Below are positions 1 through 44,198 of a stretch of DNA of 44,480 nucleotides, piece after piece. Position numbers and translations under genes: made by a program. The stretch is from an archaeon (GTDB lineage Archaea > Iainarchaeota > Iainarchaeia > Iainarchaeales > 0-14-0-20-34-12), in NCBI GenBank assembly GCA_038046645.1, contig JBBSVU010000002.1, positions 34,995 through 79,474 on the forward strand. Reading direction: 5' to 3'. Each line of letters begins with the position of its first letter. Position 1 is the first letter of the stretch. The notes under the pieces were generated by a model. It saw nothing but the letters and a program-made list of their open reading frames with translations. It did no database searches and had not been told where the DNA came from.

Positions 1-758
1 GCTTTTTTTCCGCTGAATATTTCAAATGCCTCTGCTCCCTGAAACAACAACCATTCCCTGCCATCAATTACCTTGCATCCTTTCTGCTTTGCGTCCTTTT
101 GCAATGCAGTTATGGTTGAATAATTTGCATCAAGAATAACCATTTTTTTGCTGAGCAATTCGCTTGGAATTATTCTTTCGGCTGTGCTGACGCACGAAAC
201 AATAATGTCAGTTTCCTGCAGTATTTTAGGCAGCATTTTTTTATCTTCCAAAGAATATGCTTTGCAATCAAATTTTTCAGCAAGCCTTTCTGCTTTTTCA
301 AAATCCAATCTTCTATTAAGTATTGTTACATCAGCTTTATCCGCAAGGGCACAAACAGTGGCTTTTGCCGCCCCACCAGCCCCTAATATCACAATATCTT
401 TCCCATCGGGATTAACCCTATTCGATTTCAATGCACGGGAGATGCCATCAATGTCAGTATTAAATCCAATTGCTTTGCTATTTTTGAATATCACAGTATT
501 TACAGCACCAATCTTCTTTGCTTTTGGATCAATTTTGCCGGCCAATTTTACAAAATCCTCTTTAAATGGGGCTGTAATGTTCAATCCTTTAATGCCTATT
601 TCTTTTGCTGTATTAAGGGCCTCATCCGCATTTTGCGCCAAAAGCCTTGTGTAAACAGCATTCATCCTTAATTTTCTGAATGCCGCATTATGCATTGCCG
701 GGCTTTTGCTGTGCAGAATTGGGTTGCCTGTGACCGCAAATATTTTTATTTCAGGCAT
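1..758 (-). CDS. aroE: Shikimate dehydrogenase, 3' end cut by the window edge (not in ORF track)
   Basis: Manual translation from ATG at 758: [24 protein letters not shown]...GLNITAPFK...IGAVNT...GFNTDIDG...ILGAGGAAKA...DGREWLLFQG. All are AroE motifs. Start overlaps the aroB end. Confidence 0.95.
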   Translation of the reverse strand, partial: MPEIKIFAVTGNPILHSKSPAMHNAAFRKLRMNAVYTRLLAQNADEALNTAKEIGIKGLNITAPFKEDFVKLAGKIDPKAKKIGAVNTVIFKNSKAIGFNTDIDGISRALKSNRVNPDGKDIVILGAGGAAKATVCALADKADVTILNRRLDFEKAERLAEKFDCKAYSLEDKKMLPKILQETDIIVSCVSTAERIIPSELLSKKMVILDANYSTITALQKDAKQKGCKVIDGREWLLFQGAEAFEIFSGKK

Positions 759-1774
759 TTTTCCAGTTCCCCCAAATTTATCCCTGAAATGCTTGTTTTT
801 CCTATTGCCTCGATCAGCACAAAGTTTATGATATCAGAATCCCTTTTTTTGTCCTTCCTGATTGCATCCATTAATGTTTCTTTTTTCAATTTTGTTTCAG
901 AAAGGCTTGTCGGCAAGCCAATTCTTTTGAATAAGGATTCAATTCTTTGAGAATCCTTTTCTGAAAGCAACCCTCTTTCCTGTGAAATCCTTGATGCAAG
1001 AATTATTCCGATGCTTACGGCTTCTCCGTGTGAAATATCTGAATTCTTCTCAATTGCATGCCCAATAGTATGCCCCAAATTCAGTTTTCTTCTCTCATTT
1101 CTTTCCTTTTCATCAGCCGCAACAATTCTTGATTTCACCAAAAGTGAATCATAGACCGCTTTTTCCAATGCAGTGCGGTGCAATGAAAGTATTCTTTCAA
1201 TATTTTCTTCAATGTATGAAAAAAGAGCCGCATCGCCTATTATGGCGGCCTTTACTATCTCGGCAAGGCCGCACTTTAATTCATTTTTCGGCAATGTTCT
1301 TAATAATTCAAAATCACAGAGAACAAATACTGGTTGATTTATTGTGCCAATAATATTTTTGTAACCTTTGAAATTTACCCCATTCTTGCCGCCAATGCTT
1401 GCGTCTGCCTGTGCAAGTAATGTGCTTGGGACAAACCCAAAATTAATTCCGCGCAAGTATGTTGATGCAGCAAATCCTGTAACATCAAGGACTATGCCTC
1501 CGCCAATCCCGACAACAAATGAATTCCTGTCCAATTCAAGCTCGAGGAATTTATTGTAAAGCATTTCTACAGTCTCAAGCGTTTTGTTTTTCTCATCCGC
1601 ATCAATCTGAATAAATTCTGCCTTTGGCAATAGCCCTTTAATAACCGGAAAAATATTTTTATCAATCACGATTACTGATTTTTTAGTATTAACATATTTT
1701 TCGAGTTGGGTTACTGATTCACCAACAATTACTTCGCTATTGCCGCTTTTTGTATTTATTTCAAGAAGCCTCAT
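746..1774 (-). CDS. aroB: 3-dehydroquinate synthase (canonical AroB)
   Basis: [33 protein letters not shown] and [12 protein letters not shown] motifs. ATGA overlap with the upstream DAHP synthase. Confidence 0.97.
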
Positions 1775-2583
1775 TTTAACTCACCCATAAATGCGCTTAA
1801 TGGCCTAACCTTTTTCATTATTGCAGAAAACTGTTCTGGTGTTAATGTTTGGTCTTTGTCACTTACAGATTCTTCCGGTTTTACGTGTACCTCGAGTATT
1901 AAGCCGTCAGAACCTGAGGCAACTGCTGCTAAACTCATTGATTCTATTAAGCTTAGCTTGCCAGTGCCATGGGAAGGATCCACAATTATTGGCAAATGTG
2001 TCAATTCCTTTATTGCAGGCACAGCACTCAAATCAAGCGTATTCCTTGTGTATGTTTCAAATGACCTTATTCCCCTTTCGCAAAGTATTACATCAGGGTT
2101 GCCTTCATTAAGTATGTACTCTGCGCAGTTCAACCATTCCTCAATTGTTGAATACATGCCTCTTTTCAACAAAATAGGCTTGTTGGATTTCCCTGCCTCT
2201 TTTAACAATGAAAAATTCTGCATATTCCTTGCACCAATCTGCAATACATCCGCATATTCTGAAACCCATGAAACATCCCTTGTGTCTAAAACCTCGGTAA
2301 CAATAGGCAAGCCGGTTTCATCCCTTGCTTTTTCAAGTATCTTTAATCCTTTTAATCCTAACCCTTGGAATGCGTATGGTGATGTCCTTGGTTTAAAGGC
2401 CCCTCCTCGCAACATATCTGCCCCAGCCTCTTTTACTGCATGCGCTGTCTTCAATAATTGCTCTTCACTTTCCACACTGCAAGGCCCAGCTATGACTATA
2501 AAACCCGCTCCAATCTTTACGTCCCTTACCTTTACAATGGTCCTTCCATTCCCATTCAAACCTGCTAATTTAATGTTTTTCAT
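1771..2583 (-). CDS. aroF: DAHP synthase, type I-beta, catalytic barrel only
   Basis: [48 protein letters not shown] and DPSHGTG motifs. 270 aa with no ACT or chorismate mutase appendage. Confidence 0.96.
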
Positions 2584-2670
2584 AATCTCAGCCTTCTTTT
2601 ACATTCCTCCATTTTCATACTCCTTTTTTTACATTACCCTACTTTTATGTTTAAAGTTAAATATCACAAG

Positions 2671-2716
2671 CATCAGAAAAAACACCTTAGAAAAAGATAT
2701 TAGGGTTATTCTGATG
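2671..2716 (-). promoter_or_regulatory. Hairpin directly after the leader stop codon (putative attenuator helix containing oligo-U tracts)
   Basis: mRNA CAUCAGAA (2716-2709) is complementary to UUCUGAUG (2678-2671). U5 (2695-2691) and U6 (2682-2677) tracts lie within the structure. Confidence 0.55.
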
Positions 2717-2718
2717 GC

Positions 2719-2796
2719 TTACCAAAACCCATAGCTAAAGAAATATCCAAAAAAGAAGCCTTTGTCTTTAGCGTTTTTGTTTTGCAATGCCATCAT
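2719..2796 (-). CDS. Putative aromatic amino acid leader peptide, 25 aa, MMALQNKNAKDKGFFFGYFFSYGFW
   Basis: Read directly: ATG ATG GCA TTG CAA AAC AAA AAC GCT AAA GAC AAA GGC TTC TTT TTT GGA TAT TTC TTT AGC TAT GGG TTT TGG TAA. 6 Phe, 2 Tyr and 1 Trp in the last 12 codons. Ends 135 nt upstream of aroF. Confidence 0.8.
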   Translation of the reverse strand: MMALQNKNAKDKGFFFGYFFSYGFW

Positions 2797-2810
2797 AAAA
2801 ATCTTCTTAC

Positions 2811-2841
2811 TATACAAATATGCACATAATATCTTAATAAA
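2811..2841 (-). promoter_or_regulatory. aro operon promoter: TATA-like element (TTTATTAA, ~2841-2834) plus paired TRP-box-like operator TATACA-N4-TGCACA (2811-2826)
   Basis: Two hexamers, each one mismatch from the TrpY consensus TGTACA, 4 bp apart, lying between the TATA element and the leader ATG. The same hexamers occur at the trpE/trpY promoter. Confidence 0.65.
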
Positions 2842-2918
2842 TGCTGCGGTTTATCCTGTTTTTGTGCTGTCCTGTTTTTTATTCTTAGTATTGCTTTGGA
2901 AAAATGGAGTTAATCTTC

Positions 2919-3683
2919 CTATTTGCCCTCGGCCAATTTTTTAATAAATCTTTCCACATTATTTAATGCTTTTTTCTTATCTATTTTTCTTCCTTTAATG
3001 CATTTACCATAAATATCAATAATTTTGCTGCCGACAATAATGCCATCAGCCCCTGTTTTTTCAAATGCTTTTGCTTGATTAGAATTGGAAATGCCAAATC
3101 CCACAAATAATTTTTTATTCCCGGAAATTTTCCTGATTTTTTTCATTAAAGTTAATCCTTCAATGCCTGCCTTCTTCCTTGCGCCAGTTGTTCCTGACAG
3201 CGAAACAACATACGTAAAGAGCCCTGCATTTTTTAATATTTCAAGGCATCTTTCCTTGCTTGTGTTTGGTGCAATAAGGTGAATCAGGCTTATCTGGTGT
3301 TTTTTTGCCAAACTTTCAAATCTTTTATCCTCCCCTAAAGGCAAATCAGCAATTATTAATCCCTTAACTCCAGCATGCTTCATTTTTATGAGAAATTTCC
3401 CGACCCCATAGCAGTAAATAATATTGTAATAAGTCATGAAAACAAGAGGCACACCTAAATTTTCCTCTTTTAACCTTGAACACATTTTAAATATCTTCCC
3501 AATTGTTGTGCCATTTTTCAAAGATCTTGCGGCTGCTTTCTGTATTGTTTTCCCATCAGCAATAGGGTCTGAAAAAGGGATTCCTAATTCTATAATCTCA
3601 GAATAGGGCACTAATGTTTTAACTAAATCAAAAGTGAAATTGAGGTTTGGGTCTCCACAGCAAACATAGGGTATAATTTTCAT
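2919..3683 (-). CDS. trpA: Tryptophan synthase alpha chain
   Basis: [32 protein letters not shown] and ADGIIVGS motifs. Start moved to ATG 3683 (GGAGG RBS, ATGA overlap with trpB). Confidence 0.97.
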
Positions 3684-4864
3684 GTTGTACAACCTCCTGT
3701 TTTTGCAATATTTGAGATATATTCAACATCTTTATCGCCGCGGCCTGAAAGATTTATTAGAATTATATCATCTTTTTTGCAGTTCCTTGAAATTTTTTTA
3801 GCATAAGCAATTGCGTGTGCAGATTCTAGTGCAGGGATTATGCCTTCGGTTTTGGCCATCAAATTGAATGCTTCCAAGGCTTCTCCATCAGTTATAGAAA
3901 CATATTTAGCTCTGCCCATCTTGTGCATAAATGCATGTTCAGGCCCAATAGCTGCATAATCCAAGCCTGCTGATATTGAATGAGTTTCCTTTATTTGGCC
4001 TTCTTTATCCTGAAGAACATAGGTTAAGGAACCATGCAAAATTCCTTTTTTTCCATTGCTTATCCTTGCAGCATGTTTTCCACTCTTTAATCCATAACCC
4101 CCAGCTTCAACACCTATCAATTTTACTTTTTTGTCATTTTTAAACCCTGAAAATATCCCGATAGAATTACTGCCTCCGCCAACACAGGCTATAACATAAT
4201 CAGGCAATTTCCCTTCTTTTTTAAATATTTGTTTCCTTGCCTCTTTTCCGATAACTGATTGGAAAAAGCTCACTATGTTTGGATAGGGATGCGGGCCAAC
4301 AACCGAGCCTATTACATAATGAGTATCTTTATATGTTGCAGCATAATCTCTTAATGCCTCATTTATTGCATCCTTTAAAGTCCCTGAACCAGAATCAACC
4401 TTGATTACATTTGCGCCCATTAACTGCATCCGGTACACATTCATCCTTTGCCTTTCCATATCCTTTGCACCCATAAATACATCGCATTTTAGGCCAAATA
4501 ATGCTGCAGCACACGCAGTAGCAACCCCATGCTGCCCGGCGCCGGTTTCAGCAATAACCCTTTTCTTTCCCATGTGCTTCGCGAGCATAATTTGCCCTAA
4601 GGTATTGTTTATTTTGTGGGCGCCAGTATGCAATAAATCCTCTCTTTTGAAATAAATTTTTGCCTTGCCAAATCTTTTGCTGAGATTTTTTGCATAATAC
4701 AAAGGAGTAGGCCTTCCGGCATAATTGGAAAGGCATTCTCCAAGCTGTGTTTTGAATGCGCCATTTCTTTTTAATTTATTGAAATTTTTTTCCAAATCTT
4801 GCAATATCGGCATTAATAATTCTGGCACATATTGCCCCCCAAATTCACCAAATCTAGCATTCAT
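3680..4864 (-). CDS. trpB: Tryptophan synthase beta chain (TrpB1)
   Basis: [26 protein letters not shown] (PLP lysine), [16 protein letters not shown] and NLSGRGDKD motifs. ATG at 4864. Confidence 0.98.
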
Positions 4865-4910
4865 TTTTTTACCTTCCAAAATTTCAAAAATTTAACATAA
4901 TTGCTTCTTC

Positions 4911-5690
4911 TCAATATTTTCCCTTCAATTCCCTTATTTTTTCTGCTTGATTCATGCTCTTCCAAATAGCAGTCCCCACTAATGCGGCATTTATCCCGGC
5001 TTTTGATATAAGTTCAATATCCTGCCTTTTTTGTATCCCGCTTTCACTTATTATTTTCCTGCCCTTCAATCTTCCCCTGCCAATATTTTCCATTATTTTT
5101 ATGCTCCTGTTTAGATTGACATCTAATGTTCTTAGGTCCCTATTATTTATCCCTAAAATATCTGCTTTGGTATCCAAGGCCCTTTCCATCTCTTCCCTAG
5201 TGTAGCATTCAAGCAAAACTTCCAGGCCAAAGGAATGTGCGCTTTCAATCATCTTGTTTATGTCCAAATGTAGCCTGTCAGCAAGTGTCATTATTAAAAG
5301 TACACAATCCGCACCAAGGGAAGCTGCAGCTTTAATCTGGGTTTCATGCATTATAAAATCCTTGAATAAAATAGGAAGCCCGGTTTTCTTTGCCTTGCAT
5401 ATATTTTTCAGATTGCCTTTGAATATGGCTGGCTCAACCACAACAGATATTGCATCCGCCCCGGCATTTTTGAAAAGAAAAGCGGTTTTTTCAGCATCAA
5501 TATCTTCAAAACAATATTCTCCAGCAGGTGAAGCATGCTTTATCTCAGCAATCAAGCAAAAATTATTTTTCCCTATTTTCTCTTTAAGTGAAACCTTTTT
5601 TGCCTTGTATTTCTTAGGAATTTCAAGATTATAATAGCCTGCAGCAATATTCCTTTCCGCTTGCTCAATGAATTTATCCAAGATATCCAT
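4911..5690 (-). CDS. trpC: Indole-3-glycerol phosphate synthase
   Basis: IAEIKHASP, PILFKDFI, GINNRDL and ISESGI motifs. Start at ATG 5690 with GGTGAG RBS. Confidence 0.95.
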   Translation of the reverse strand: MDILDKFIEQAERNIAAGYYNLEIPKKYKAKKVSLKEKIGKNNFCLIAEIKHASPAGEYCFEDIDAEKTAFLFKNAGADAISVVVEPAIFKGNLKNICKAKKTGLPILFKDFIMHETQIKAAASLGADCVLLIMTLADRLHLDINKMIESAHSFGLEVLLECYTREEMERALDTKADILGINNRDLRTLDVNLNRSIKIMENIGRGRLKGRKIISESGIQKRQDIELISKAGINAALVGTAIWKSMNQAEKIRELKGKY

Positions 5691-5694
5691 TATC

Positions 5695-6717
5695 TCACCC
5701 AGTATGCACAATTTGTTTATTAAAATTCCTGAGCATTTCAAGCTTTTCAAATGCTTTGCCTGAATCAATCGCCTTTTCTGCAAGGGAAATTCCTTTCCCT
5801 ATTGAATTTACAAAACTGCTAGCATAAATTGCTGCCCCGGCATTTAACACTGTGATATCCCTTGCAGCTCCTTCCCTGCCATTAAGCACTTCAAGAATCA
5901 TGCGAGCACTTCCTGTTTTATTCTCCACAAGAATTTTTCCTAAATTCTGCTTTTTGAATCCAAAATCCTCAGGTTCAATAAAATATTCTTCAATTTTATT
6001 GCCAGAGATTTCAAGAATCCTTGTTTTTTCGCTTATGCTTATTTCATCAATATTGCTGTTAGCCACAATGCTCTTTTCAGTTCCTAAAATCTGCAAAGCT
6101 TCAGCTATTTTATCCTGCACTTCTTTATCATAAACGCCAATAATCTGCTTTTTTGCATTTGCCGGGTTTGTCAACGGCCCTGCAAGGTTGAATATGCTCT
6201 TGAAACCAAGTTCTTTGCGGACAGCTGCAACTTTTTTCATGGTCGGATGAAATGCAGGAGCGAATAAAAAAGCAATATTTATTTCGTTAAGTTGCATTTC
6301 TGCAGTTTTTGCATCTGTGCATATTCCAACCCCCAATTCTTCAAGGGCATCTGCACTGCCACAATTGCTTGATATTGCACGGTTGCCGTGCTTGGCAACA
6401 GTTATCCCAGAAGCAGCTGCAACAAGTGCTGCACATGTTGATACGTTAAATGTTTTTGAATTATCCCCGCCAGTTCCTGCTGTATCTACCAAATATTTTG
6501 CATTTGTTTTTACTTTTGTTGAATGCTTTCGCATAAATTCCGCAATTGCAGCAATTTCGCTTGCTTTTTCACCCTTTGTCTTTAAGGCAGTGATAAATGC
6601 AGCTATCTTTATGTCAGAGATTCTGCCATTTACAATTTCCTGCATTGCAAATTCTAATTCTTCTGCCTGTAAATCCCTAATTCCAACCGTTTTTTCCAAT
6701 ATAAAATTAAAGTCCAT
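5695..6717 (-). CDS. trpD: Anthranilate phosphoribosyltransferase
   Basis: DTAGTGGD, TFNVST, KHGNRAISSNCGSAD, FLFAPAFHP and FNLAGPLTNP motifs. ATG at 6717. Confidence 0.97.
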   Translation of the reverse strand: MDFNFILEKTVGIRDLQAEELEFAMQEIVNGRISDIKIAAFITALKTKGEKASEIAAIAEFMRKHSTKVKTNAKYLVDTAGTGGDNSKTFNVSTCAALVAAASGITVAKHGNRAISSNCGSADALEELGVGICTDAKTAEMQLNEINIAFLFAPAFHPTMKKVAAVRKELGFKSIFNLAGPLTNPANAKKQIIGVYDKEVQDKIAEALQILGTEKSIVANSNIDEISISEKTRILEISGNKIEEYFIEPEDFGFKKQNLGKILVENKTGSARMILEVLNGREGAARDITVLNAGAAIYASSFVNSIGKGISLAEKAIDSGKAFEKLEMLRNFNKQIVHTG

Positions 6718-6721
6718 AATC

Positions 6722-7315
6722 TCAACTCTTTTGGCTAGCATATTTGCAAAAATTTTCAAGTATTTTTATTCCTGACACAGTCATTATGGATTCAGGATGA
6801 AATTGTATTCCAAACAAAGGGCATTTTTTGTGCTGTATTGCCATAATTGAATTGTCATCGATGGCTTTTGCGCTTACTTCAAAACATTCTGGCAGCGTTG
6901 ATTCCTCTACAATCAATGAATGATACCTCATCACAACCAAAGGATTTTCAATGCCGGTAAATAAGCCTTTTCCATTGTGCTGTATTGTGCTTGTTTTGCC
7001 ATGCATTGGTTTTTCCGCATGAATTATGTTAGCACCATATGCTGAAGCAATGCCTTGGTGCCCCAAACAGATGCCTAATGTCGGTATTTTTTCAGCATAT
7101 TTTGTAATTATATTTTTGCATTTTCCAAAATCCTTTTCATTGCATGGATTTCCAGGGCCAGGGGAGATTATAATGGTATCAAAAAAACCTGCTTCAATCT
7201 GCCCTAAATTAATGCGGTCATTCCTTTGCACATCCACACTATGGCCTAAAGAAACTAAAGCCTGGTAAACATTATAGACAAATGAATCAAAATTATCTAT
7301 TAATAGCAAGTTCAT
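6722..7315 (-). CDS. trpG: Anthranilate synthase component II (glutamine amidotransferase)
   Basis: [29 protein letters not shown] and QFHPES motifs. ATG 7315 follows a GGTGA RBS. Confidence 0.97.
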   Translation of the reverse strand: MNLLLIDNFDSFVYNVYQALVSLGHSVDVQRNDRINLGQIEAGFFDTIIISPGPGNPCNEKDFGKCKNIITKYAEKIPTLGICLGHQGIASAYGANIIHAEKPMHGKTSTIQHNGKGLFTGIENPLVVMRYHSLIVEESTLPECFEVSAKAIDDNSIMAIQHKKCPLFGIQFHPESIMTVSGIKILENFCKYASQKS

Positions 7316-8645
7316 ATTTTTCATCACCTATTGCATCCAATAATGCCTTTGCCTTTTTCTCTGTTTCATAGAATTCTGTTTCAGGAACGCTGTCATAAAC
7401 AATGCCTGCGCCTGTCTGTATGTATGCCTTGCGCTTCTCGGCAAATAAAGTCCTGATGCCTATCGCAAAATCAGCATTCCCATTTGAGGAAAAATATCCT
7501 ATTGCCCCACCATATGGCCCTCTTGCAACCTTCTCAAGTTCATCTATTATTTCAATTGCCCTTATTTTCGGGGCTCCGGAAACAGTGCCTGCAGGGAATA
7601 TGGCCTTGAATGCATCAAAAGCATCCTTGTTTTCAGCAAGTTTTGCATTGATTGCTGAAGAAATATGCTGCACATCAGAATACTTATGAACCTCCATTAA
7701 TTTTGATACTTTTACAGTTCCAGCCTTTGCAACCTTTCCAATATCGTTCCTTGTAAGGTCTACAAGCATTAAATGTTCGGCCCTTTCTTTTTCATCATTC
7801 AACAATTCTTTTTCAAGCAACACATCTTCTTCAATAGTTCTGCCTCTGCTTCTTGTGCCAGCCAGGGTAGCATAGCTTGTTATGTCATTATTTTCAATTC
7901 TCACCAGATTTTCTGGGCTAGAGCCAATTATTTCGCGTTCATCAAATTTCAAATAATACATATATGGCGAGGGGTTCAATGCTTTTAATTTTTTGTAAAA
8001 AGGGATAAGGCTTCCGTCAAATTTAAGCTCATACCTCTTAGATATCACAGCCTGAAAAATATCACCGTTCTTTATGTGCTCTTTTGCAATATCCACATTT
8101 TCACAAAATTTTTCCTTTGTGAAATTGCATTTTTTATTGTATATCTGGAAATTCTTTGCATCAAAGCTTGCATCCTTTACAAAGTTTTTTATTTCCGCAA
8201 TCCGATTTTCTTTGCCGTAAATGTAACTAATTGAATTCTGCTTATGGTCATAGACAATAGCATCATTGAATATGCCGAATTCAAAATCAGGGAAATTTAA
8301 AGTATCCTTGCTTTCCAGCGGGATGTTTTCGATATATTTGAAGAACTCAAATGAGAAATAGCCTACAGCACCGCCAATAAAGCCTGCCTGTTTTTGTTTT
8401 GTATTTAACACTTCTTTCTTCAATTGCTGCAAGGGTTCTGCTGTGTCATATTCCTGTTCCCCTATCTTCAGCAGATTATTCTTGAGGGCAATGCGCCTGT
8501 CCGGGGAGAATCCAATAAATGAGAATCTTGCAAGTTTTTCATTTCCTTCAGCGCTTTCAAGCAGAAAAACTGTGTTGTTGTGCTCAGCAATCGCGCTGTA
8601 TAGGTCTATGGGGGAGATTTGCAATTCTAAATCTGCACAATGCAA
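7293..8645 (-). CDS. trpE: Anthranilate synthase component I
   Basis: LLES and NPSPYM (Trp feedback sites), [24 protein letters not shown] and GAGIVYDS motifs. TTG start is uncertain. Confidence 0.96.
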
Positions 8646-8730
8646 GCCAAAGTAAATCCCTTCCTTTTTCTTCCATAATTTTCACATTCAATTTCTCAAA
8701 TTCAATTTTTGATAAAATATACTATGCGCC

Positions 8731-8766
8731 TGCACATATTTAAACCTTTATGCACAAAAGTATACA
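8731..8766. promoter_or_regulatory. Divergent trpE/trpY promoter with TRP-box-like sites
   Basis: TGCACA at 8731-8736 and 8751-8756 and TATACA at 8761-8766 (10-bp phasing, last pair N4-spaced) flank a TTTAAA element at 8739-8744. Confidence 0.7.
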
Positions 8767-8767
8767 T

Positions 8768-9268
8768 ATGTTAAGGATAATTGAAAAATTTTTTGAAAAT
8801 GCGCGAGGCAGGAAAATTATTGCAACAGAATTCCTGCGCTTGGGCTTTAAGGTAGACCGCAAGGGAAGGGTATTTGCCAAGAATATAGAATTGCAGCCTG
8901 CAAAGATTGCCCGTGCTTTAAATGTTGACAGAAGGGTTGTAATTGAAACTGCAAAGGAAATAGCAGAGGATGAAAAGCTGCTCCAGATTTTTTATAGGCT
9001 AGAGCCAAGGGCTTTTTTGGGGAATGCTGCAAAGGAATTAGGGTTTGATGCAATTGAAATCAGGGCTAACCCAAAAAAGAAAGGGATTGTTTATGCTGTA
9101 ACAAAGATTCTTGCCGAGGAAGGCATTGTGATAAGGCAGATAATCACTGATGACCCAGATTTATTTCCCGACCCTGTGCTTACTATAATCATTGATGGCA
9201 AATTAAACAGCAAAGTGATAAAAAAGCTTAGGGAACTGGATTTTGCGGAAAGCATTTTGATAAAATAA
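8768..9268 (+). CDS. trpY: TrpY-family tryptophan-responsive regulator (HTH plus ACT domain)
   Basis: Divergent from trpE. IARALNVDRRVV HTH and G-I-x(10)-GI-x-IRQ...DP ACT pattern typical of archaeal TrpY. Likely leaderless start at ATG 8768, 23 nt after TTTAAA. Confidence 0.88.
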   Translation: MLRIIEKFFENARGRKIIATEFLRLGFKVDRKGRVFAKNIELQPAKIARALNVDRRVVIETAKEIAEDEKLLQIFYRLEPRAFLGNAAKELGFDAIEIRANPKKKGIVYAVTKILAEEGIVIRQIITDDPDLFPDPVLTIIIDGKLNSKVIKKLRELDFAESILIK

Positions 9269-9308
9269 TCCAAAAAAGATACTTCAGGCTAATTAAAAAT
9301 AATTTGGA

Positions 9309-10166
9309 TTATAAAAGATATCTCATCTTTGGCAGATTTATTATTGCAGAATATGGAATAGCCAGTGTCAAGCCAAGATATGTTAGGAAATCAAAAAAGT
9401 AGTCAATGTTTCCCGGGCTTCTGTGCACTAATTTTACGGCTCTTTTTCCTACAACCCTTTTTGGATACCTGTAATTTTCATCCATGTAATCCATTACATA
9501 ATCTTCAGATTTCTTCAAGCGGTCAACAGACCATGTCTGCAAAACATCTATTGGAATATAATTTTTTCTGAAAATATGCGTATTGCCTTTCTTCAATGCT
9601 TTTAAAACAGAATCAATATCTTTAGAAGCGCGGATTTCATTCAAACAATAACCCATCATGAATGCAGAATGCGCATCAGAACCGCAAACAGCATTAATGC
9701 TGTATTTCTCAGCAAAGCCCTTGGCAACAAAATTTGAAATCCTGTCTATATTCAGTGCATTGAAGGATTCCATTGCATTGCACAATTTCGCTTTTTCTTT
9801 TATGCCCTCATTTTTAATATCAAAGGGATGCGGAGCAATAGTTACTGCACCTAAACTTCTTGCCTTTTCAATTGTTTCTTCTGCTGATAATCCGGCAGGG
9901 ATTTTTTCCTCTATCCCCAAAACAAGGATATGGCCATCTGCGGATGAAACTTCAATTCCAGGAATAATTAAAACATTTGAATTTATCTGCTTTGCAAGTT
10001 TCACTGCTTTCAAAGAGGATTCTATTTCATCATGGTCTGTAATCGCTAATACTTCAATATTCAATTTTACTGCATGTTCAATTAATTGCGTCACGCTGCT
10101 TAACCCTTCATGGTGGATTATTTCCCCATGTGATTTATTACTATGGCAATGCAATTCAGCTAACAT
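9309..10166 (-). CDS. PHP-domain metal-dependent phosphoesterase
   Basis: ELHCHS, AITDHD, GIEVS...GH, APHPF and GSDAH motifs. Confidence 0.9.
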   Translation of the reverse strand: MLAELHCHSNKSHGEIIHHEGLSSVTQLIEHAVKLNIEVLAITDHDEIESSLKAVKLAKQINSNVLIIPGIEVSSADGHILVLGIEEKIPAGLSAEETIEKARSLGAVTIAPHPFDIKNEGIKEKAKLCNAMESFNALNIDRISNFVAKGFAEKYSINAVCGSDAHSAFMMGYCLNEIRASKDIDSVLKALKKGNTHIFRKNYIPIDVLQTWSVDRLKKSEDYVMDYMDENYRYPKRVVGKRAVKLVHRSPGNIDYFFDFLTYLGLTLAIPYSAIINLPKMRYLL

Positions 10167-10189
10167 TTTATCACTTTAATAAAATAGTA

Positions 10190-11488
10190 TTATCTGCCCC
10201 TTTTATTAACAATATGCTCGATAATTATGCCTGCTATAATAAGAATTATGCCATAAGGAATAAGATCAGCCATACTTAAAAGCAAAGCTATTGAGAATAA
10301 AAGCCCAAGCAATGCAGGCAATGGGAATTTTCCTATGTTAAGAGGCATCTTAAATGGCGGGTGTTCGTTTTCAGTATATCTTAAAACAATTGCAGCGCCG
10401 TTTACCAGAATAAATGAGCAGAATACCATAAAATTAGTCAGATTAGCGACTGTTTCAATATTCCCGACAAAAACAAACAGCAAAGAAAATACAGCCACAA
10501 GGATAGTTGCAATAATTGGGGTGTGTGTAACAGGATTTATAAAAGAAAGGCTTATTGGCAATGACCTTAATTCAGCCATCCCATATACTATTCTTGATGT
10601 TGTAAGCATTACAAACAAAACAGTATTTGCAGTTGCAAATAAAGCAATAACTGCAAGTATTAAGAAGATATTATTGCCTAAAACACTGCCTATGGCATCT
10701 GCTAATGGCGCGTCAGATGCTGCTAATGCTTGTGGCGGCATTAAAGAAACAGCTGCTATTGCAACCAATATATACACAATTGCACTTACTGCAATTGCAA
10801 TAAGAATTCCTTGAGGTATATTCTTAGTTGCACTTTTTGTCTCTTCAGACAATCTAACCATGCTGCCAAACCCTATGTATGCAAAGAAGACTAAAGCAGC
10901 AGCCTGCCACACACTAATAAATGAGGGTATCTCCATAAGGTTTGCAATATTCATCCTTGGAAGGCCAAAGAATAAAATGATTGCTAAACCCAGGAGTTCT
11001 ATTATTGTGCAAACAATCCCGATAAGGACAGATTCTTTTAAGTCATATAAAATAAGGATTGTGCTTGCAAAGATAATCAGGATTGCGCCAAAAATAATGC
11101 CTAAACCGGTTATGCTTGCAAGATAGCCGCCAAAACCTAAAGCAACAGCTGCTGCTGATATTATTCCTTCCAGAATTATCAGCCAGCCTATTACAAAAGC
11201 AAGCGTTTTGTTGAATGCATGTTTTACATAAACATATTCTCCCCCTGCTTTAGGAAATCTTGATGCTAGCTCAGCATAGCTTAAACCAGTAAATGCAGCA
11301 AGAAAAGCGCCAATCATGAAGGAAAGCCAGATTCCATATCCTGCTAAACCAGCAGCTTTCCCAAGAAGAACATAAATGCCTGCACCAAGAATAATTCCTA
11401 TGCCTGAAAGTGTAATCTCCCATAAGCCTAATGTTTTCTTTAATTTTCCTTCTTCCTGCTTTTTATGGAATGCGAATTTTTTTGGCAT
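10190..11488 (-). CDS. APC-family amino acid permease
   Basis: About 12 hydrophobic segments with IILGAGIY, YAEL..RFPKAGGEY and FFAYIGF...SEE motifs. Start ATG 11488 or TTG 11497. Confidence 0.92.
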   Translation of the reverse strand: MPKKFAFHKKQEEGKLKKTLGLWEITLSGIGIILGAGIYVLLGKAAGLAGYGIWLSFMIGAFLAAFTGLSYAELASRFPKAGGEYVYVKHAFNKTLAFVIGWLIILEGIISAAAVALGFGGYLASITGLGIIFGAILIIFASTILILYDLKESVLIGIVCTIIELLGLAIILFFGLPRMNIANLMEIPSFISVWQAAALVFFAYIGFGSMVRLSEETKSATKNIPQGILIAIAVSAIVYILVAIAAVSLMPPQALAASDAPLADAIGSVLGNNIFLILAVIALFATANTVLFVMLTTSRIVYGMAELRSLPISLSFINPVTHTPIIATILVAVFSLLFVFVGNIETVANLTNFMVFCSFILVNGAAIVLRYTENEHPPFKMPLNIGKFPLPALLGLLFSIALLLSMADLIPYGIILIIAGIIIEHIVNKRGR

Positions 11489-11591
11489 TTTAATCAATCA
11501 AATTGAACCATTCAATTATACAAATACGGATTTGGAATTTAAAAAGATTGTGATTGGAAAAATCACCAAAATAAAAGTAGATTAGCGATTA

Positions 11592-11921
11592 TCAAACTTC
11601 AACTCTTAATCTGTGCCTATTTTCAGGCATTATTTTTATTTTCATGCCTTTCTTAAGTTTATAAAATTGTGCAATATCTGCAGGAATTGTTATTGCAAGG
11701 CTTCTTCCAGCATTTATTATCGGCCTTTGAAAGACAAAATTTTGGTTAATTTGTTCAGACAATAAATGCATCTGCTCACTTGTTGAAAATTCCTCTTCAC
11801 ATTTTTTGCATTTGTAATAAGGGCTATCTTTAATTATAATTTTGCCATTATCAAGCAATAATTCTTCAAACTTAAGCTCTGCTGTGCCTTTGCATAAATG
11901 GCAATTTATTTCTTTTTCCAT
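11592..11921 (-). CDS. Putative antitoxin: YgiT/MqsA-type zinc finger fused to an AbrB/MazE-type DNA-binding domain
   Basis: CHLC...CKKCEEEF zinc ribbon followed by GRSLAITIPADIAQFYKLKKG (AbrB signature). Confidence 0.8.
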   Translation of the reverse strand: MEKEINCHLCKGTAELKFEELLLDNGKIIIKDSPYYKCKKCEEEFSTSEQMHLLSEQINQNFVFQRPIINAGRSLAITIPADIAQFYKLKKGMKIKIMPENRHRLRVEV

Positions 11922-12166
11922 AATTCTGCCTCTTTTTCATTAGATTCCCATAAAGTTAGGACATGGATAAAACTTTCTTTTTCTATCTTAATGGCAGTTA
12001 AAAAAGAATTGCCTACTTTAAAGATAGTTTTTATTTTATTCATCTCCTCTTTTAGTTTAATTTTCTGTTTTTTCACTTCAAGCTCTATCTCGGCATAATT
12101 TATGCCTAATCTAGCAGCCCTTTCTGCAAACATTTGCTTAGCATGATGGCTCCAAAAGACATCCAT
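11906..12166 (-). CDS. Putative RelE-fold (DUF4258/BrnT-like) toxin
   Basis: 86 aa with N-terminal WSHHAKQMFAER and C-terminal HVLTLW. Overlaps the downstream zinc-finger gene. TTTAAAA element about 23 nt upstream suggests a leaderless transcript. Confidence 0.6.
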   Translation of the reverse strand: MDVFWSHHAKQMFAERAARLGINYAEIELEVKKQKIKLKEEMNKIKTIFKVGNSFLTAIKIEKESFIHVLTLWESNEKEAELWKKK

Positions 12167-33228: not shown

Positions 33229-34695
33229 ATGGTTAAAATGAAAATTTTAATGTTAAACCCGCCATTCAAGCATAAATATTCTAGGTCTAGCAGGAGCCCT
33301 GCTGTTACTAAGGGCGGCACTATTTATTATCCTCTTTGGCTTGCCTATGCTACTGCTGCTTTGGAGAAAGAAGGCTTTGAAGCAAAATTAATTGATGCCC
33401 CAGCAGAAAACCTTTCATTTGAAGATGTTTTAAAAGTTACAGAAGAATTCAAGCCAGATTTGATTGTAAGCGAAACAAGCACAGCATCAATTTATTCAGA
33501 TGTTGAAATAGCAACAAAATTGAAGAAAGCAACAAATGCTTTTTTGGTTTTGGTAGGGACACATCCTTCAGCTTTGCCTGAAGAAACACTAAAAATCTCA
33601 GGGGAAATTGATGCTATTGCAATTCATGAATACGATTATACCTTGAGAGAAATTGCCCAAAAAATACAGGCCAAAAAGCTGAATTTAGAAATGATAACCG
33701 GAATAGCTTACCAAAAAAATGGGAAAATTTTTAAAAATAAGGACAGAGAACTAATTGAAAATCTTGATGAGATTCCTTTTGTAAGCGCTGTTTACAAAAA
33801 ACATTTGAATATTAAAAACTATTTTTATTCTGCAAATCTGTACCCCGAAATAACAATTGTAACTGGAAGGGGCTGCCCTTACCAGTGCAAGTTTTGCGTC
33901 TGGCCACAAGTTTTGCAGGGTCAAGCATATAGGAAAAGAAGCATTGAAAATGTATTTGAAGAATTTAAATATATAAAAGAAACATTTCCTGAAGCGAAAG
34001 AAATCTTCATTGAAGATGATACATTTACTGCAGACAGGGAACGCGTTAAAAAGTTTTGCGATTTATTAATTAAAAATAGTTTAAAAATCACCTGGAGCTG
34101 CAATTCAAGGGCAGACGTTGATCTTGAAACACTTCAAAAGATGAAACAAGCAGGATGCCGTTTGTTGTGTGTTGGGGTAGAATCAGGCTCTCAGGAAATT
34201 TTGAATAATATAAGAAAAGGCACAACTATTGAAGGCATAAAAAAATTTATGAAAGACTCAAAAAAAGCAGGAATTCTTGTGCATGGCTGTTTTATGCTTG
34301 GGAATCAGGGCGAGACAAAAGAAACCATACGAAAAACAATTGAATTTGCAAAAGAATTAAACCCTGATACCGCGCAATTCTTTCCCATAATGGTTTATCC
34401 GGGGACAGAAACCTATGAAGAATTCAAAAAATCAGGGTTTTTGACAACAAATAAATTTGATGAATGGTTAACAAAGGATGGACAGCATAATTCAATCATA
34501 TCAAGGCCGGGATTGTCAAATTATGAATTAGTGGAATTGTGCGATGAAGCAAGAAGAGAGTTTTATTTAAGGCCAAAATACATTTTCAGCAAGATTAAGC
34601 AGGCATTTCTGCACCCGAAAGAGTTTGTGAGGATTGCAAAGGCATCCAAAACTTTTTTCAAATATTTGTTTAATAAAAAGGAAAAACAGGATTAA
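33229..34695 (+). CDS. Cobalamin-binding radical SAM protein
   Basis: N-terminal B12 domain (YPLWLAY, GTHPSALP), GRGCPYQCKFC and GVESGSQ. Confidence 0.92.
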   Translation: MVKMKILMLNPPFKHKYSRSSRSPAVTKGGTIYYPLWLAYATAALEKEGFEAKLIDAPAENLSFEDVLKVTEEFKPDLIVSETSTASIYSDVEIATKLKKATNAFLVLVGTHPSALPEETLKISGEIDAIAIHEYDYTLREIAQKIQAKKLNLEMITGIAYQKNGKIFKNKDRELIENLDEIPFVSAVYKKHLNIKNYFYSANLYPEITIVTGRGCPYQCKFCVWPQVLQGQAYRKRSIENVFEEFKYIKETFPEAKEIFIEDDTFTADRERVKKFCDLLIKNSLKITWSCNSRADVDLETLQKMKQAGCRLLCVGVESGSQEILNNIRKGTTIEGIKKFMKDSKKAGILVHGCFMLGNQGETKETIRKTIEFAKELNPDTAQFFPIMVYPGTETYEEFKKSGFLTTNKFDEWLTKDGQHNSIISRPGLSNYELVELCDEARREFYLRPKYIFSKIKQAFLHPKEFVRIAKASKTFFKYLFNKKEKQD

Positions 34696-34738
34696 AAAAT
34701 TGTGCTGTTTGCCAAATGAAATAGTAAAATGATTAGAA

Positions 34739-35326
34739 ATGGATCGTGTTGAATTAATTTTAAATGGCATTTCAGGAAAAATCCTTGATGTCGGCTGCTA
34801 TTGTGGTACTTTACATAAGAGAATCTTAGGGAAATTTCCTCAAGAAAATGTTTATGGAATTGATACTGAGATAAAAGAACAAAATGAGCATTACAAAAGA
34901 GCTTTTGCTGAAAACATTCCTTTCTCAAATAATTTTTTTGATTCGATTGTTGCCGGAGAATTGATTGAACATCTTAAAGAACCGGAATTATTTTTGAAGG
35001 AAGCGAATCGATTGCTGAAAAAAGGCGGAACTTTAATTATTACTACGCCAAACAAAGGCAGCTTAATTAATATAATATTTCATAATTATGAACAGCCAAA
35101 TGCGCCGCTGCATTTCTCATTGTTTAATGAAAAAGAATTAAGAAAATTGCTTGAGAAAAACGGTTTTAACTTTAAAAAAGTGCATTTTTTACCATATACA
35201 AAAGAAAGCTGTGATGGTACGAGGCATAAAAGTATTTTGGGGATAAGAATCTGGGTTAATAAATCACTGCCAAAAAAATTAAGGGAAAATATATTAAGTA
35301 TATCAAAAAAGGTGACTACTTTATGA
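34739..35326 (+). CDS. Class I SAM-dependent methyltransferase
   Basis: ILDVGC, FD...ELIEHL and LKKGG...TTPN motifs. Confidence 0.9.
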   Translation: MDRVELILNGISGKILDVGCYCGTLHKRILGKFPQENVYGIDTEIKEQNEHYKRAFAENIPFSNNFFDSIVAGELIEHLKEPELFLKEANRLLKKGGTLIITTPNKGSLINIIFHNYEQPNAPLHFSLFNEKELRKLLEKNGFNFKKVHFLPYTKESCDGTRHKSILGIRIWVNKSLPKKLRENILSISKKVTTL

Positions 35327-36144
35327 TTAAGATGCCTAAAAATTTTAATCTGCTCATTATAACTGCTAATAAGTTAAGGCATAAATACTTTGCAATTGAA
35401 CTTATGAAACTAATACCGGATTCATATGTTATTATTGAAAAAATGCACGACGAAACAAGTAAGAATTATGTTGAAAAACCTACAACTTTAATAGAGGCAC
35501 ATTTTAATGAATTTGATGAAACGGAAAAAAAGTATTTTTTGGATTATTTTAATGAAAATAAAGCTTTTTTTAATGCGCGACTATTATTAGAGATTAAGAA
35601 GGGTGAGATAAATAACAAGGAAAATGTTAATTTTATTAAAGAAATAAATCCCACAGTAATAGCAATATTTTCAACTAGTTTAATAAAGGATGAATTAATC
35701 ACACTATTCCCAAAACAACTAATTAATCTTCATGCGGGATTGTCGCCCTATTATCGTGGTTCGGGCACAAATATATACCCCTTTTACAATAAAGAACTAG
35801 AATTTGTTGGGATGACTATTCATTATCTAAACACAGGTATTGATAGCGGAGATATAATTCTTCAGGGTAGACCTAAGTTCAGTATCAATGACAATACTCA
35901 TACTATTGGGTGTAAGAATGTAATTTTGGGAACAGAATTAATGGCAAAAGTGATTAAAAAATACTTACAAGAGAGATCACCTCTACCTGCGTTTAAACAA
36001 GATATTTCTAAAGGTAAACTTTATTTAAAGAAAGACTTTACCGAAGAAGTAATTTTGCACATAAGACAAAATCTGAAAGAGGGATTAATTAAGGATTACC
36101 TTAAAAACCGAAGAGATGTAAAAATTATAAGTGAACTAACTTGA
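35323..36144 (+). CDS. Formyltransferase-domain protein
   Basis: INLHAGLSPYYRG and TIH...GIDSGDII (N10-formyl-THF transferase catalytic N/H/D). Confidence 0.88.
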   Translation: MIKMPKNFNLLIITANKLRHKYFAIELMKLIPDSYVIIEKMHDETSKNYVEKPTTLIEAHFNEFDETEKKYFLDYFNENKAFFNARLLLEIKKGEINNKENVNFIKEINPTVIAIFSTSLIKDELITLFPKQLINLHAGLSPYYRGSGTNIYPFYNKELEFVGMTIHYLNTGIDSGDIILQGRPKFSINDNTHTIGCKNVILGTELMAKVIKKYLQERSPLPAFKQDISKGKLYLKKDFTEEVILHIRQNLKEGLIKDYLKNRRDVKIISELT

Positions 36145-36995
36145 ACAATAGAATTATAATGTACCATTACATTAGGAATAATGCTAACTTTAAGGCATTG
36201 AATTTAAATCACTTTAGAAATCAATTGCAGCATCTTTGCAATAAGTATAAGATAATATCCCTCAAAGAGCTAATCAAAAACAAATCATTCAGAAACACTT
36301 GTGTTCTCACTTTTGACGATGGATTAAAAGATGGTTTGGTTAATGCGTTGCCAATATTAGAGGAATTTAATCTTAAAGCTACCTTTTTTATCCCTACAAA
36401 AATATTAGTTACTGAAAAATTGTTGTCAGTTCAGAAAAGGCATTTGATATTAGCCAAGCTTGGGGCAGAAAAGTTTGTTAAAGAATTTAATAAACTTTCT
36501 GAAGATATATTTCATATTGAACGAACCGGAAAAACTAATGGTTATGATGATGACCTAACCTCTAATCTCAAATGGGTTTTAGACAATATGGACCAACTAA
36601 AATCCACTATTTATTTAAATAAAATATTTAACAAATATTTTGATGAGAAAAGAGAATTTAAGAAAATTTATTTAACTAAAAGAGATATAAATAAATTAGA
36701 TATTGCCGGTATGGAAATAGGGGTTCATGGTCATGAGCATTTGCATTTTGCTAATGTTTCTTTTAATGAAATGCAATCAGATATCTTAAAATCTGTTGAA
36801 ATATTTAAAGAAAACTTTGACAGCAAAGATTTAGTAATATCTTACCCTTTTGGTAGTTATTCTTTATTTACATTAAGACTTTGTCACAAGCTTGGTTTTA
36901 TGGCAGGTGTTACTACTATAAAAAAGGATAATACTTCCGCAGATAATCCTTTAGAACTTGGCAGATATGATTGTATTGATAATGAAAAATTCTAA
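36141..36995 (+). CDS. Polysaccharide deacetylase (CE4/NodB)
   Basis: IMYH, LTFDDG, ATFF, HGHEH and SYPFG motifs. TTG start overlaps the upstream stop. Confidence 0.9.
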   Translation: MNNRIIMYHYIRNNANFKALNLNHFRNQLQHLCNKYKIISLKELIKNKSFRNTCVLTFDDGLKDGLVNALPILEEFNLKATFFIPTKILVTEKLLSVQKRHLILAKLGAEKFVKEFNKLSEDIFHIERTGKTNGYDDDLTSNLKWVLDNMDQLKSTIYLNKIFNKYFDEKREFKKIYLTKRDINKLDIAGMEIGVHGHEHLHFANVSFNEMQSDILKSVEIFKENFDSKDLVISYPFGSYSLFTLRLCHKLGFMAGVTTIKKDNTSADNPLELGRYDCIDNEKF

Positions 36996-37001
36996 GTTTG
37001 A

Positions 37002-37703
37002 TCAGTCTTTTTTATATCTCTTGAGCATAAGTTTTTCGGCAATAAAAAAATCTATTCCAGTATCTATATCAATTGAGTCTTCTTGTTGCATTAAATAGCC
37101 TACTGTTTTGTCACATATGAAAGAATTAGATTTCATAATATATTCGGTTTTTGCAGCAAAGATAGCTCCATTTAGATAATATAATTGCTCAGCATCCTGC
37201 CTACGTAAAATTTCTTTAGTATTAAGATATCTTTTTACAAAACCAGCAACATCAATTCTAAATACCCATTCAAGAGGTTCTTTTAATGGTGTAATGGAAA
37301 CAATTGAATCTGAATTAGTCTTTATTAAATAGTTAATGGCCTCTTTTATGTGCCTTGCTGTTCTCAAGGGGCTTGTAGGTTGCAAAAGCACAATAATATT
37401 AGGTCGGTAATCTTCTTTTTTATCTAAAAATTTTAATACTTGCTTAATTACGGGAATAATAAGTGCTCTATCCGTGGCTAGCTTTTTAGGTCTATCAATA
37501 ATTTGGACCCCATAGTTGACACAAATTTGTTTTATTTCTTTATCTTCTGTTGAAACAATGATTTTTCCCATATTCGCATTTTTTGCAGCATCTATGGTGT
37601 ACTTTATAAGGGGTTTACCATTGAATAATCGCGTATTCTTTTTAGATAATGATTTTGACCCACCTCTTGCAGGGATTATAAAAAGAATATTTTGTTTGAT
37701 CAT
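37002..37703 (-). CDS. neuA: CMP-nonulosonic (N-acylneuraminate) cytidylyltransferase
   Basis: IIPARGGSK...KN, LLQPTSPLR, RRQD, NGAI and SIDIDT motifs. Confidence 0.93.
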   Translation of the reverse strand: MIKQNILFIIPARGGSKSLSKKNTRLFNGKPLIKYTIDAAKNANMGKIIVSTEDKEIKQICVNYGVQIIDRPKKLATDRALIIPVIKQVLKFLDKKEDYRPNIIVLLQPTSPLRTARHIKEAINYLIKTNSDSIVSITPLKEPLEWVFRIDVAGFVKRYLNTKEILRRQDAEQLYYLNGAIFAAKTEYIMKSNSFICDKTVGYLMQQEDSIDIDTGIDFFIAEKLMLKRYKKD

Positions 37704-37743
37704 ATGGTGCCTTCTCCTAATAAAAATATTTCAGAATTATTTG

Positions 37744-39913: not shown

Positions 39914-39983
39914 GACTGATATTCCCTACTATTTAAGGTTAAATATGCTTTTGTAATATTTTAAATAAGTGACATTAATAATA

Positions 39984-41051: not shown

Positions 41052-41118
41052 ACATATCCAAAAATATACTTATAGACCACTAATATCCCTATTTTTACCA
41101 ACCCTTTTAAATGACTTA

Positions 41119-41793: not shown

Positions 41794-41992
41794 CAAATCC
41801 CCCTTTAACGAGAATCTCAAATAATTATCATTAATTCTGTTTTATTAGATGATTAAATATATGACAGCATTTTACTCAGTATACTATATTTTATTAAGGG
41901 ATATTTTAAACTTACGTGTAGTGTAACTTTATAGAATTTCTTCCCAATTCATAAATATTTACATTTGTATTATTCGATTTAAGCTTTCGCTT

Positions 41993-42658: not shown

Positions 42659-42795
42659 AAGTTATATTCTTATTAAGTTTATAAATGTTTTTTAACTTAG
42701 CACTATAGAAATTTTAACTAATCCAACCTTGAGAACATTCTTACTGACCAACAACAATCAAAAAAAAAGAAGTCATAAGCGCTGTCACATAATAT

Positions 42796-44184: not shown

Positions 44185-44198
44185 AATATCCTCAACCA

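Follow-up and report, generated by a model that had tools for sequence, protein, structure and literature searches.

In a 44,480-nucleotide (nt) stretch of an archaeal genome, referred to here as the window, we found a 25-codon open reading frame (ORF) that precedes an operon beginning with the DAHP synthase gene and ends in a dense run of phenylalanine, tyrosine, and tryptophan codons. The sequence of this leader ORF and its counterparts in related genomes suggest that it is probably a functional, cis-acting sensor of aromatic amino acid supply that works by ribosome stalling. Leader-peptide attenuation is a textbook form of gene control by coupled transcription and translation and is regarded as bacterial. 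A first-pass annotation of this DNA had stated that such attenuation is not established in archaea, and our full-text literature search, with subscription journals largely outside its coverage, likewise returned no archaeal leader-peptide attenuator. One introductory sentence of the uORF4u paper has upstream ORFs regulating archaeal genes too, citing reviews and giving no example there. The interest of a leader sensor is high at this locus because the host is an archaeon: the same contig encodes GatE, archaeal-type ribosomal proteins P1, L10, L1, and L11, Spt5, FtsZ, and a TrpY-family regulator.

The leader ORF and its promoter

The leader region comprises the following elements:

2719..2796, minus strand: leader ORF, 25 codons plus TAA, recognized from the sequence and from its counterparts in relatives
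2722..2757, minus strand: run of regulatory codons (codons 14 to 25), 9 of 12 for Phe, Tyr, or Trp, with Trp as the last codon before the stop, read from the sequence
2834..2841, minus strand: TATA-box-like TTTATTAA, 37 nt before the leader ATG, a match to TTTAWWAA
2808..2814, minus strand: predicted transcription start, at about 2811, with a probable 5' untranslated region of about 12 to 18 nt, from motif spacing in 885 gene starts
2900..2904, minus strand: T5 tract 15 nt past the trpA stop, the probable end of the trp transcript, from the sequence and the archaeal oligo(dT) termination signal

The ORF opens at 2796 with a tandem ATG-ATG and closes with TAA at 2721-2719; its start, length, stop, and translation are exactly those given in the first-pass annotation, and the uneven distribution of aromatic residues described there was reproduced, with none in codons 1 to 13 and nine (six Phe, two Tyr, and one Trp) in codons 14 to 25. 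It sits within the 335-nt gap between trpA (2919-3692) and the DAHP synthase gene (1771-2583), on the same strand as the latter and 135 nt from it, and the gene map bears out its placement between a TATA-like element and the DAHP synthase-aroB-aroE genes. The genome (1.17 Mb, 25 contigs, 35.5% G+C, 89% complete) holds 7301 ATG ORFs of 15 to 40 codons, and none but the leader ORF places nine aromatic residues in its last 12 positions, a clustering of cognate codons that ranks first of 7301 and lies beyond chance. Eight such residues occurred in one ORF and seven in five, and these six runners-up are nested in stop-free frames of 202 to 423 codons (five of them) or 108 codons (the sixth); the leader ORF is the sole clearly intergenic one among the top-scoring aromatic-tailed short ORFs. 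In contigs from four groundwater DNA runs, compared over positions 2300-3200, the pieces covering the leader were identical to the window and all differences fell in 2347-2506, inside the gene for DAHP synthase, which leaves no population variation at the leader in these runs.

The motif TTTATTAA is the only match to TTTAWWAA on the minus strand from trpA to DAHP synthase, and no match lies on that strand between the leader and DAHP synthase. Across the window genome, 40 of 885 genes have a TTTAWWAA that ends 20 to 24 nt ahead of the start codon, while other 5-nt bins hold 1 to 13. This sharp peak argues that TTTAWWAA is the working TATA box of this genome, that about 22 nt separate motif and start, and that most mRNAs of the organism look leaderless. 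Taken over the entire window, the matches show no enrichment, numbering 76 where 72 are expected; the promoter argument rests on the fixed position of the motif and not on its presence. The start near 2811 predicted from this spacing agrees with the transcription start near 2810 that had been expected from the first pass. At the level of sequence, there is strong motif evidence for a promoter 5' of the leader as the start of the operon, and the alternative that transcription begins downstream of the ORF finds no archaeal motif before DAHP synthase. A scan of 2400-3100 for sigma-70 promoters gave four promoter-like sites against 2.8 expected, which is uninformative for an archaeon.

Counterparts in archaea and bacteria

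DAHP synthase loci were drawn from 41 and then 215 genomes of the phylum, with 80 more each from metagenome and genome contigs. For a broad count we used 196 loci, 171 of them with 400 nt of upstream sequence, and scored as a leader any ATG ORF of 10 to 60 codons with at least seven aromatic residues per 12-residue window. Such an ORF lies upstream of DAHP synthase on the sense strand at 25 of the 171 loci and on the antisense strand at 3, and the maximum in shuffled sequences averaged about 2. Aromatic leaders preceding DAHP synthase are widespread, and the earlier description of such a leader as unusual does not hold for bacteria. There is also an experimental precedent in aroR-aroF.

In Corynebacterium glutamicum (Neshat et al. 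2014, as summarized in PMC11802643), a leader-peptide attenuator lies upstream of the DAHP synthase operon: the short aroR ORF, with Phe and Tyr codons, stands directly before an operon that starts with DAHP synthase, as in the window, and ribosome stalling raises operon transcription. It differs in that aroR-aroF is a bacterial transcription attenuator with a Phe-Tyr-Phe triplet, whereas the window has aromatic residues at 9 of 12 codons, a TATA motif, and no canonical terminator. The Escherichia coli leaders pheL-pheA, pheM-pheST, and trpL-trp, named in the same summary (PMC11802643), also place cognate codons near the end of a short ORF that is followed at once by alternatively folding RNA, but they each sense one amino acid and rely on a 3:4 terminator and bacterial RNA polymerase, and the window matches no Rfam leader family (positions 1-12000, E up to 1). 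As outlined in bioRxiv 10.1101/834739, mycobacteria carry polycysteine leaderless short ORFs that form an amino-acid-responsive attenuator at the 5' end of polycistronic mRNAs; these too are short 5'-end ORFs rich in one kind of codon, but they are bacterial and sense cysteine.

Within the phylum, 7 of 52 DAHP synthase loci have a sense ATG ORF with at least six aromatic residues in 12. These seven come from five families and comprise the window (L001), two loci of one genus (L174 and L175), two of another (L178 and L179), L180, and L011; a further locus, L096, labelled Candidatus Micrarchaeota, also has an aromatic leader. The aromatic run is always C-terminal in these leaders, and the order trpA-leader-DAHP synthase is common to the window, L174, L175, and L096. 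All seven sense ORFs of the phylum have a TTTAWWAA ending 23 to 38 nt before the ATG, at L011 with the 23 nt of leaderless spacing. For comparisons of promoter, fold, and terminator we used seven archaeal copies (the window, L174, L175, L096, L178, L179, and L180), all of which have the motif 28 to 38 nt before the leader ATG; in L174, L175, L096, L178, and L179 it has no second match on its strand in 2.5 to 5.8 kb.

The close pair L178 and L179 encodes the same leader peptide, and the ORF differs at 4 of 81 positions, all four synonymous. The 75 nt before the ATG are identical in the two, and the spacer farther downstream has many substitutions and an indel block. The first-pass annotation had proposed looking upstream of DAHP synthase in relatives for conserved ORFs with Phe/Tyr/Trp tails and for synonymous variation; the ORF and its codon bias proved to be conserved at the seven phylum loci and L096, with leaders in bacteria as well, and substitution of the coding type is seen in this one pair. 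Leader peptides of the other lineages are only 23 to 37% identical to that of the window, with the initial Met alone invariant. Because an aromatic tail and a short Ser-Phe-Gly-like motif are nearly all that the peptides have in common, the constraint appears to act on codons and not on the peptide. This pattern bears on whether the region might instead produce a functional small aromatic peptide or a trans-acting small RNA. Some bacterial leader peptides and attenuator RNAs are described as acting in trans (PMC7298713 and PMC7968998), but peptides so divergent point to codon-level constraint, and we consider a trans function very unlikely.

In L178 and L179 there is also a second small ORF of about 29 codons, located about 110 to 200 nt past the leader stop behind a GAGGTGA-like site, between the leader hairpin and DAHP synthase. 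It encodes three Cys, and its C-terminal half is conserved in both.

Three observations weigh against a conserved function of the leader. The closest DAHP synthase, that of L094 (80% identity), has no leader, and the same is true of L176 and L177. The synonymous changes come from a single pair of close genomes. Finally, aromatic ORFs with at least six such residues number seven on the sense strand and nine on the antisense strand in the A/T-rich loci of the phylum, so that counts do not separate the strands. Counting aromatic ORFs alone within the phylum was dropped as a test, as the antisense strand scores equally high; it is the promoter motif, found at 7 of 7 sense ORFs and within 60 nt of none of the nine antisense ORFs, that separates them. 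The same counts bear on the idea that the ORF arose by chance, from a T-rich, terminator-like spacer that yields TTT, TTC, and TAT codons when read in frame. T-rich DNA readily yields Phe codons in a genome of 35.5% G+C, and the antisense of A-rich stretches scores similarly, but the ORF ranks first genome-wide, the other high scorers are nested in long frames, relatives at 48 to 55% G+C (L174, L175, and L178) have counterparts, the TATA distance is fixed, and change is synonymous only. A chance origin is strongly disfavoured and, in our judgment, barely credible.

The DAHP synthase of the window is 73 to 77% identical to genes of metagenome-assembled genomes (MAGs) labelled Spirochaetia, Ignavibacteriaceae, and Syntrophaceae/delta-proteobacteria, and its closest named records are labelled Candidatus Micrarchaeota. 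In a FastTree phylogeny, the window, those bacteria, three genomes of its own phylum, and two Micrarchaeota-labelled records form a clade of 21 rows with a support of 98, and the leader-bearing archaeal enzymes fall in three separate parts of the midpoint-rooted tree. Naming a donor or a direction of transfer between archaea and bacteria was abandoned, since the midpoint-rooted tree lacks resolution at the base of the clade.

Bacterial leaders of the window clade are preceded by a sigma-70-like promoter of the TTGACA type and followed by a G+C-rich, short-loop hairpin with a U-run, and by their sequence these copies nearest to the window are attenuators of the classical kind. With a simple scan, a canonical terminator was detected at 8 of 11 bacterial-type leader loci and at none of the seven archaeal copies; three metagenome contigs (L014, L020, and L021) have the leader without the terminator and were not tallied as archaeal. 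The bacterial units, from MAGs of Spirochaetia, Ignavibacteriaceae, Syntrophaceae, Clostridia, and Acidobacteriota, have in common with the window the position and strand of the leader, the C-terminal run of Phe, Tyr, and Trp, and the DAHP synthase-aroB order, and the Ser-Phe-Gly-like motif recurs in several of them. They differ in their flanks: the archaeal copies have TTTAWWAA in place of the TTGACA-type promoter and, in place of the short-loop hairpin and U-run, a long-loop hairpin at the stop codon with U tracts in its loop. Judged from sequence, the read-out of the archaeal leader differs from the classical bacterial terminator. We nevertheless count homology to working devices as support for the leader as a sensor, because its DAHP synthase shares a clade with bacteria whose leaders precede terminators.

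The RNA after the stop codon and the read-out of the leader

Four elements lie between the leader and DAHP synthase:

2667..2721, minus strand: hairpin of 12 pairs with the stop codon at the start of its 5' arm, a 30-nt U-rich loop, and a weak inner stem; -18.3 kcal/mol, z = -1.77 against dinucleotide shuffles
2691..2695, minus strand: T5 tract within the hairpin loop, read from the sequence
2677..2682, minus strand: T6 tract entering the 3' arm of the hairpin, read from the sequence
2580..2612, minus strand: second mini-ORF of 10 codons, read from the sequence, with GGAG 7 nt before it (2620-2623) and a TGA that overlaps the DAHP synthase ATG (ATGA)

We folded the 98 nt that start at the stop codon of each of the seven archaeal copies, and every minimum-energy structure opens with a hairpin whose 5' arm begins 0 to 6 nt from the stop. 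Their z-scores against dinucleotide shuffles are -1.77, -2.36, -1.91, -0.70, -1.34, -0.41, and -3.49. The hairpin arms are unrelated in sequence between lineages, the loops are U-rich and 14 to 35 nt long, and a T5-T7 tract lies 13 to 48 nt past the leader stop in six of the seven, L174 having T4 only. The 3' arms of L178 and L179 differ by two substitutions, and by our reading of the alignment and the fold each leaves the pairing intact through G-U. The hairpin and the U tracts are thereby demonstrated features of the locus, as are the ORF, its conservation, and the promoter motif.

These features lead us to propose that the aro-phe-tyr mRNA has the leader ORF as its first cistron and that this ORF serves as a cis sensor of charged Phe-, Tyr-, and Trp-tRNA. 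Transcription from the TATA box (2841-2834) would begin about 15 nt before the leader ATG. With aromatic amino acids plentiful, the ribosome would reach the stop codon and cover the 5' arm of the hairpin, leaving the U5 and U6 tracts in open, untranslated RNA, and transcription would terminate early, either at the oligo-U itself or through the U-preferring FttA (aCPSF1). With uncharged aromatic tRNAs, the ribosome would stall within the 12-codon aromatic run, at least five codons before the stop, and free the 5' arm; the hairpin would then close around the U tracts, and RNA polymerase would continue into DAHP synthase and the nine genes behind it. That the ORF is translated, that ribosomes stall on it, which way the switch works, and how termination takes part are all inferred. 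In archaea, oligo(dT) tracts are described as the sequence-dependent termination signal and FttA as a second termination route that prefers U-rich nascent RNA, factor-dependent termination requiring uncoupling from translation (outlined in PMC13681488). The genome encodes an orthologue of FttA/aCPSF1 (858 bits against a cut-off of 580 bits), and Spt5 is encoded within the window.

To model the ribosome, we folded the RNA with a 30-nt footprint masked. In this model, the window hairpin formed with a probability of 0.58 when the ribosome stalled in the middle of the run and 0.11 when it stood at the stop codon, and in L174, L096, L178, and L179 the corresponding values were 0.85 to 0.98 and 0 to 0.01. 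Hairpin formation varies with the modelled position of the ribosome, partly by construction, and no terminator partner was identified. The read-out that we favour, if at somewhat less than even odds, is one in which the stop-abutting hairpin gates a conditional termination at the U tracts.

A number of findings tell against this scheme. A ribosome placed at the stop codon abolishes the hairpin by construction, through the mask itself, the hairpin of L175 is unchanged by ribosome position, and in the window the hairpin probability is only 0.05 when the first aromatic codon is the site of the stall. Folded in full, the 247-nt leader region does no better than shuffled sequences (z = +0.52). Moreover, the U tracts lie in the hairpin loop and are passed by the polymerase before the 3' arm exists; the hairpin therefore cannot block purely intrinsic termination, and the model needs termination that is slow or factor dependent. 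The proposal of an archaeal attenuator, made in the first-pass annotation, stands as to the conserved leader of cognate codons, the archaeal promoter motif, and the archaeal host, but no terminator of the bacterial type, with a G+C-rich hairpin, a short loop, and a U-run, was found in 2400-3100. The leader of L011 is followed by two weak terminator-like matches.

Another possibility is that the same sensor has a different read-out, in which the position of the ribosome alters downstream translation initiation or mRNA stability and not termination, for example through the GGAG-led mini-ORF. Ribosome-gated refolding of RNA requires nothing domain specific, the U-rich stretch of the window pairs in the unconstrained fold with the purine-rich GGAG region before the mini-ORF, and the overlap of the mini-ORF stop with the DAHP synthase ATG suggests that translation of DAHP synthase may be coupled to an upstream initiation event. 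When the modelled ribosome is moved from the stop codon to a mid-run stall, the DAHP synthase start of the window becomes more accessible (0.53, up from 0.30), but accessibility is unchanged in L174, L096, L178, and L179 and moves in the opposite direction in L175. The spacer between leader and gene, in addition, varies from 80 to 305 nt and is poorly conserved between L178 and L179. A translational read-out was set aside for want of consistent support across the modelled loci, and we regard this wider family of read-outs as unlikely, though it deserves to be weighed.

The absence of a canonical terminator from all seven archaeal copies would also fit a relic, that is, a leader acquired along with, or held in common through, exchange of a DAHP synthase operon with bacteria, and surviving in the archaeon without a regulatory role. 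The identity of 73 to 77% to the bacterial enzymes, the joint clade with its support of 98, and the loss of the leader from some close archaeal relatives (L094, L176, and L177) are all consistent with this. A dead relic, however, would have no need of the archaeal TATA motif that every copy has acquired at a fixed distance; moreover, the leader is retained in five families of the phylum and in three separate parts of the enzyme tree, the one close pair shows synonymous changes only, and stop-abutting hairpins are kept despite unrelated sequences. We judge a relic to be decidedly unlikely.

With the leader ORF read as an aromatic-supply sensor, a broader proposition can be put: that archaea do use leader-peptide attenuation and that a bacterial-style aromatic leader was kept across domains while both of its flanking modules were replaced, the sigma-70 promoter by a TATA box and the terminator by a stop-abutting hairpin that gates oligo-U or FttA termination. 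In this full form the proposition is possible but doubtful.

The operon, its setting, and what the leader may mean

The genes around the leader are as follows:

1771..2583, minus strand: DAHP synthase, type I-beta, 270 amino acids, short form without the N-terminal regulatory domain (Pfam PF00793, E = 1.2e-81; NCBIfam TIGR01361)
746..1774, minus strand: aroB, 3-dehydroquinate synthase (gene annotation by homology)
3..758, minus strand: aroE, shikimate dehydrogenase, which runs past the window edge and continues on locus L213
2919..8645, minus strand: trpE-G-D-C-B-A, directly upstream of the leader (context)
8750..9268, plus strand: TrpY-family regulator, divergent from trpE (NCBIfam NF053754, E = 2e-44, 151.5 bits, below the cut-off of 180 bits)

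Past the window edge, the operon continues with an aroK frame (shikimate kinase), aroA, aroC, pheA (CM-PDT-ACT), tyrA, and a class I/II aminotransferase. The leader thus heads an operon for chorismate, Phe, and Tyr, and a tail dominated by Phe and Tyr fits the synthesis encoded behind it; the short ORF is co-oriented with, and upstream of, the biosynthetic operon for the amino acids in which it is enriched. The first-pass claim that the tail covers all three end products is right in that Phe, Tyr, and Trp are all present, but there is one Trp only, the operon makes chorismate, Phe, and Tyr, and the trp operon has a TrpY-type regulator of its own.

TrpY is a protein repressor that acts at the promoter of archaeal trp genes. 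Repression of this type resembles the proposed leader in tying archaeal genes of aromatic biosynthesis to the supply of end products, and the TrpY-family gene lies only 6 kb away in the same cluster; it differs in that a protein acts at the promoter in place of a translated leader. Protein repression seems to serve the trp half of the cluster, and the leader ORF stands in the aro half. Within window positions 8646-9268, the intergenic gap of 104 nt between trpE and the TrpY-family gene holds a TTTAAATA box.

Among relatives in the phylum, most DAHP synthases are extended at the N terminus by about 65 to 110 residues; the window enzyme is not. Control at the level of expression would make sense for an enzyme without this regulatory extension. 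We rejected the pairing of a short, unregulated enzyme with a leader as a rule, as bacterial leaders precede long-form enzymes too. At least seven aromatic residues were found upstream of 17 of 146 long-form loci and 8 of 25 short-form loci, in a tally for which the automatic start assignment was wrong for L174 and L175. At L011 (genome G016), a 30-codon ORF with an aromatic end lies 387 to 294 nt before a long-form DAHP synthase, so the leaders of the phylum are not confined to the short form.

Some features of the neighbourhood stand apart from the leader. On L213:9375-10753, the aroE frame (306 amino acids) and the next frame (171 amino acids) overlap by 58 nt in different reading frames, and the latter consists of the C-terminal domain of shikimate dehydrogenase followed by shikimate kinase. 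Because aroE-aroK is one continuous frame in L096 and other relatives, the window genome has either a frameshift or an assembly error here, or else a fused aroE-aroK gene has been split. A type I 3-dehydroquinase (PF01487) was not found in the 89%-complete genome, type II dehydroquinase being outside that search; in relatives aroD sits between aroB and aroE, and in the window aroB abuts aroE. Far from the operon, positions 33229-44229 hold a sugar-modification cluster with NeuC- and NeuB-like proteins, a PseF-like cytidylyltransferase, several B12-binding radical SAM proteins, a formyltransferase, and a deacetylase, at 29 to 32% G+C, below the rest of the window.

For annotation, the leader ORF means that aromatic operons in these small genomes have a first cistron that has gone unannotated. 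A conserved aromatic leader equipped with a promoter in DPANN archaea would provide a concrete and mutable object with which to address two questions, namely whether the coupling between ribosome and RNA polymerase in archaea is tight enough for gene regulation and how termination at oligo-U or by FttA is modulated. It also bears on the fate of a cis-regulatory device shared between domains, of which the sensing ORF is retained while the promoter and read-out modules differ. If archaeal attenuation with replaced modules is borne out, it would represent a transcription switch that the ribosome controls and that is made for the archaeal, eukaryote-like polymerase.

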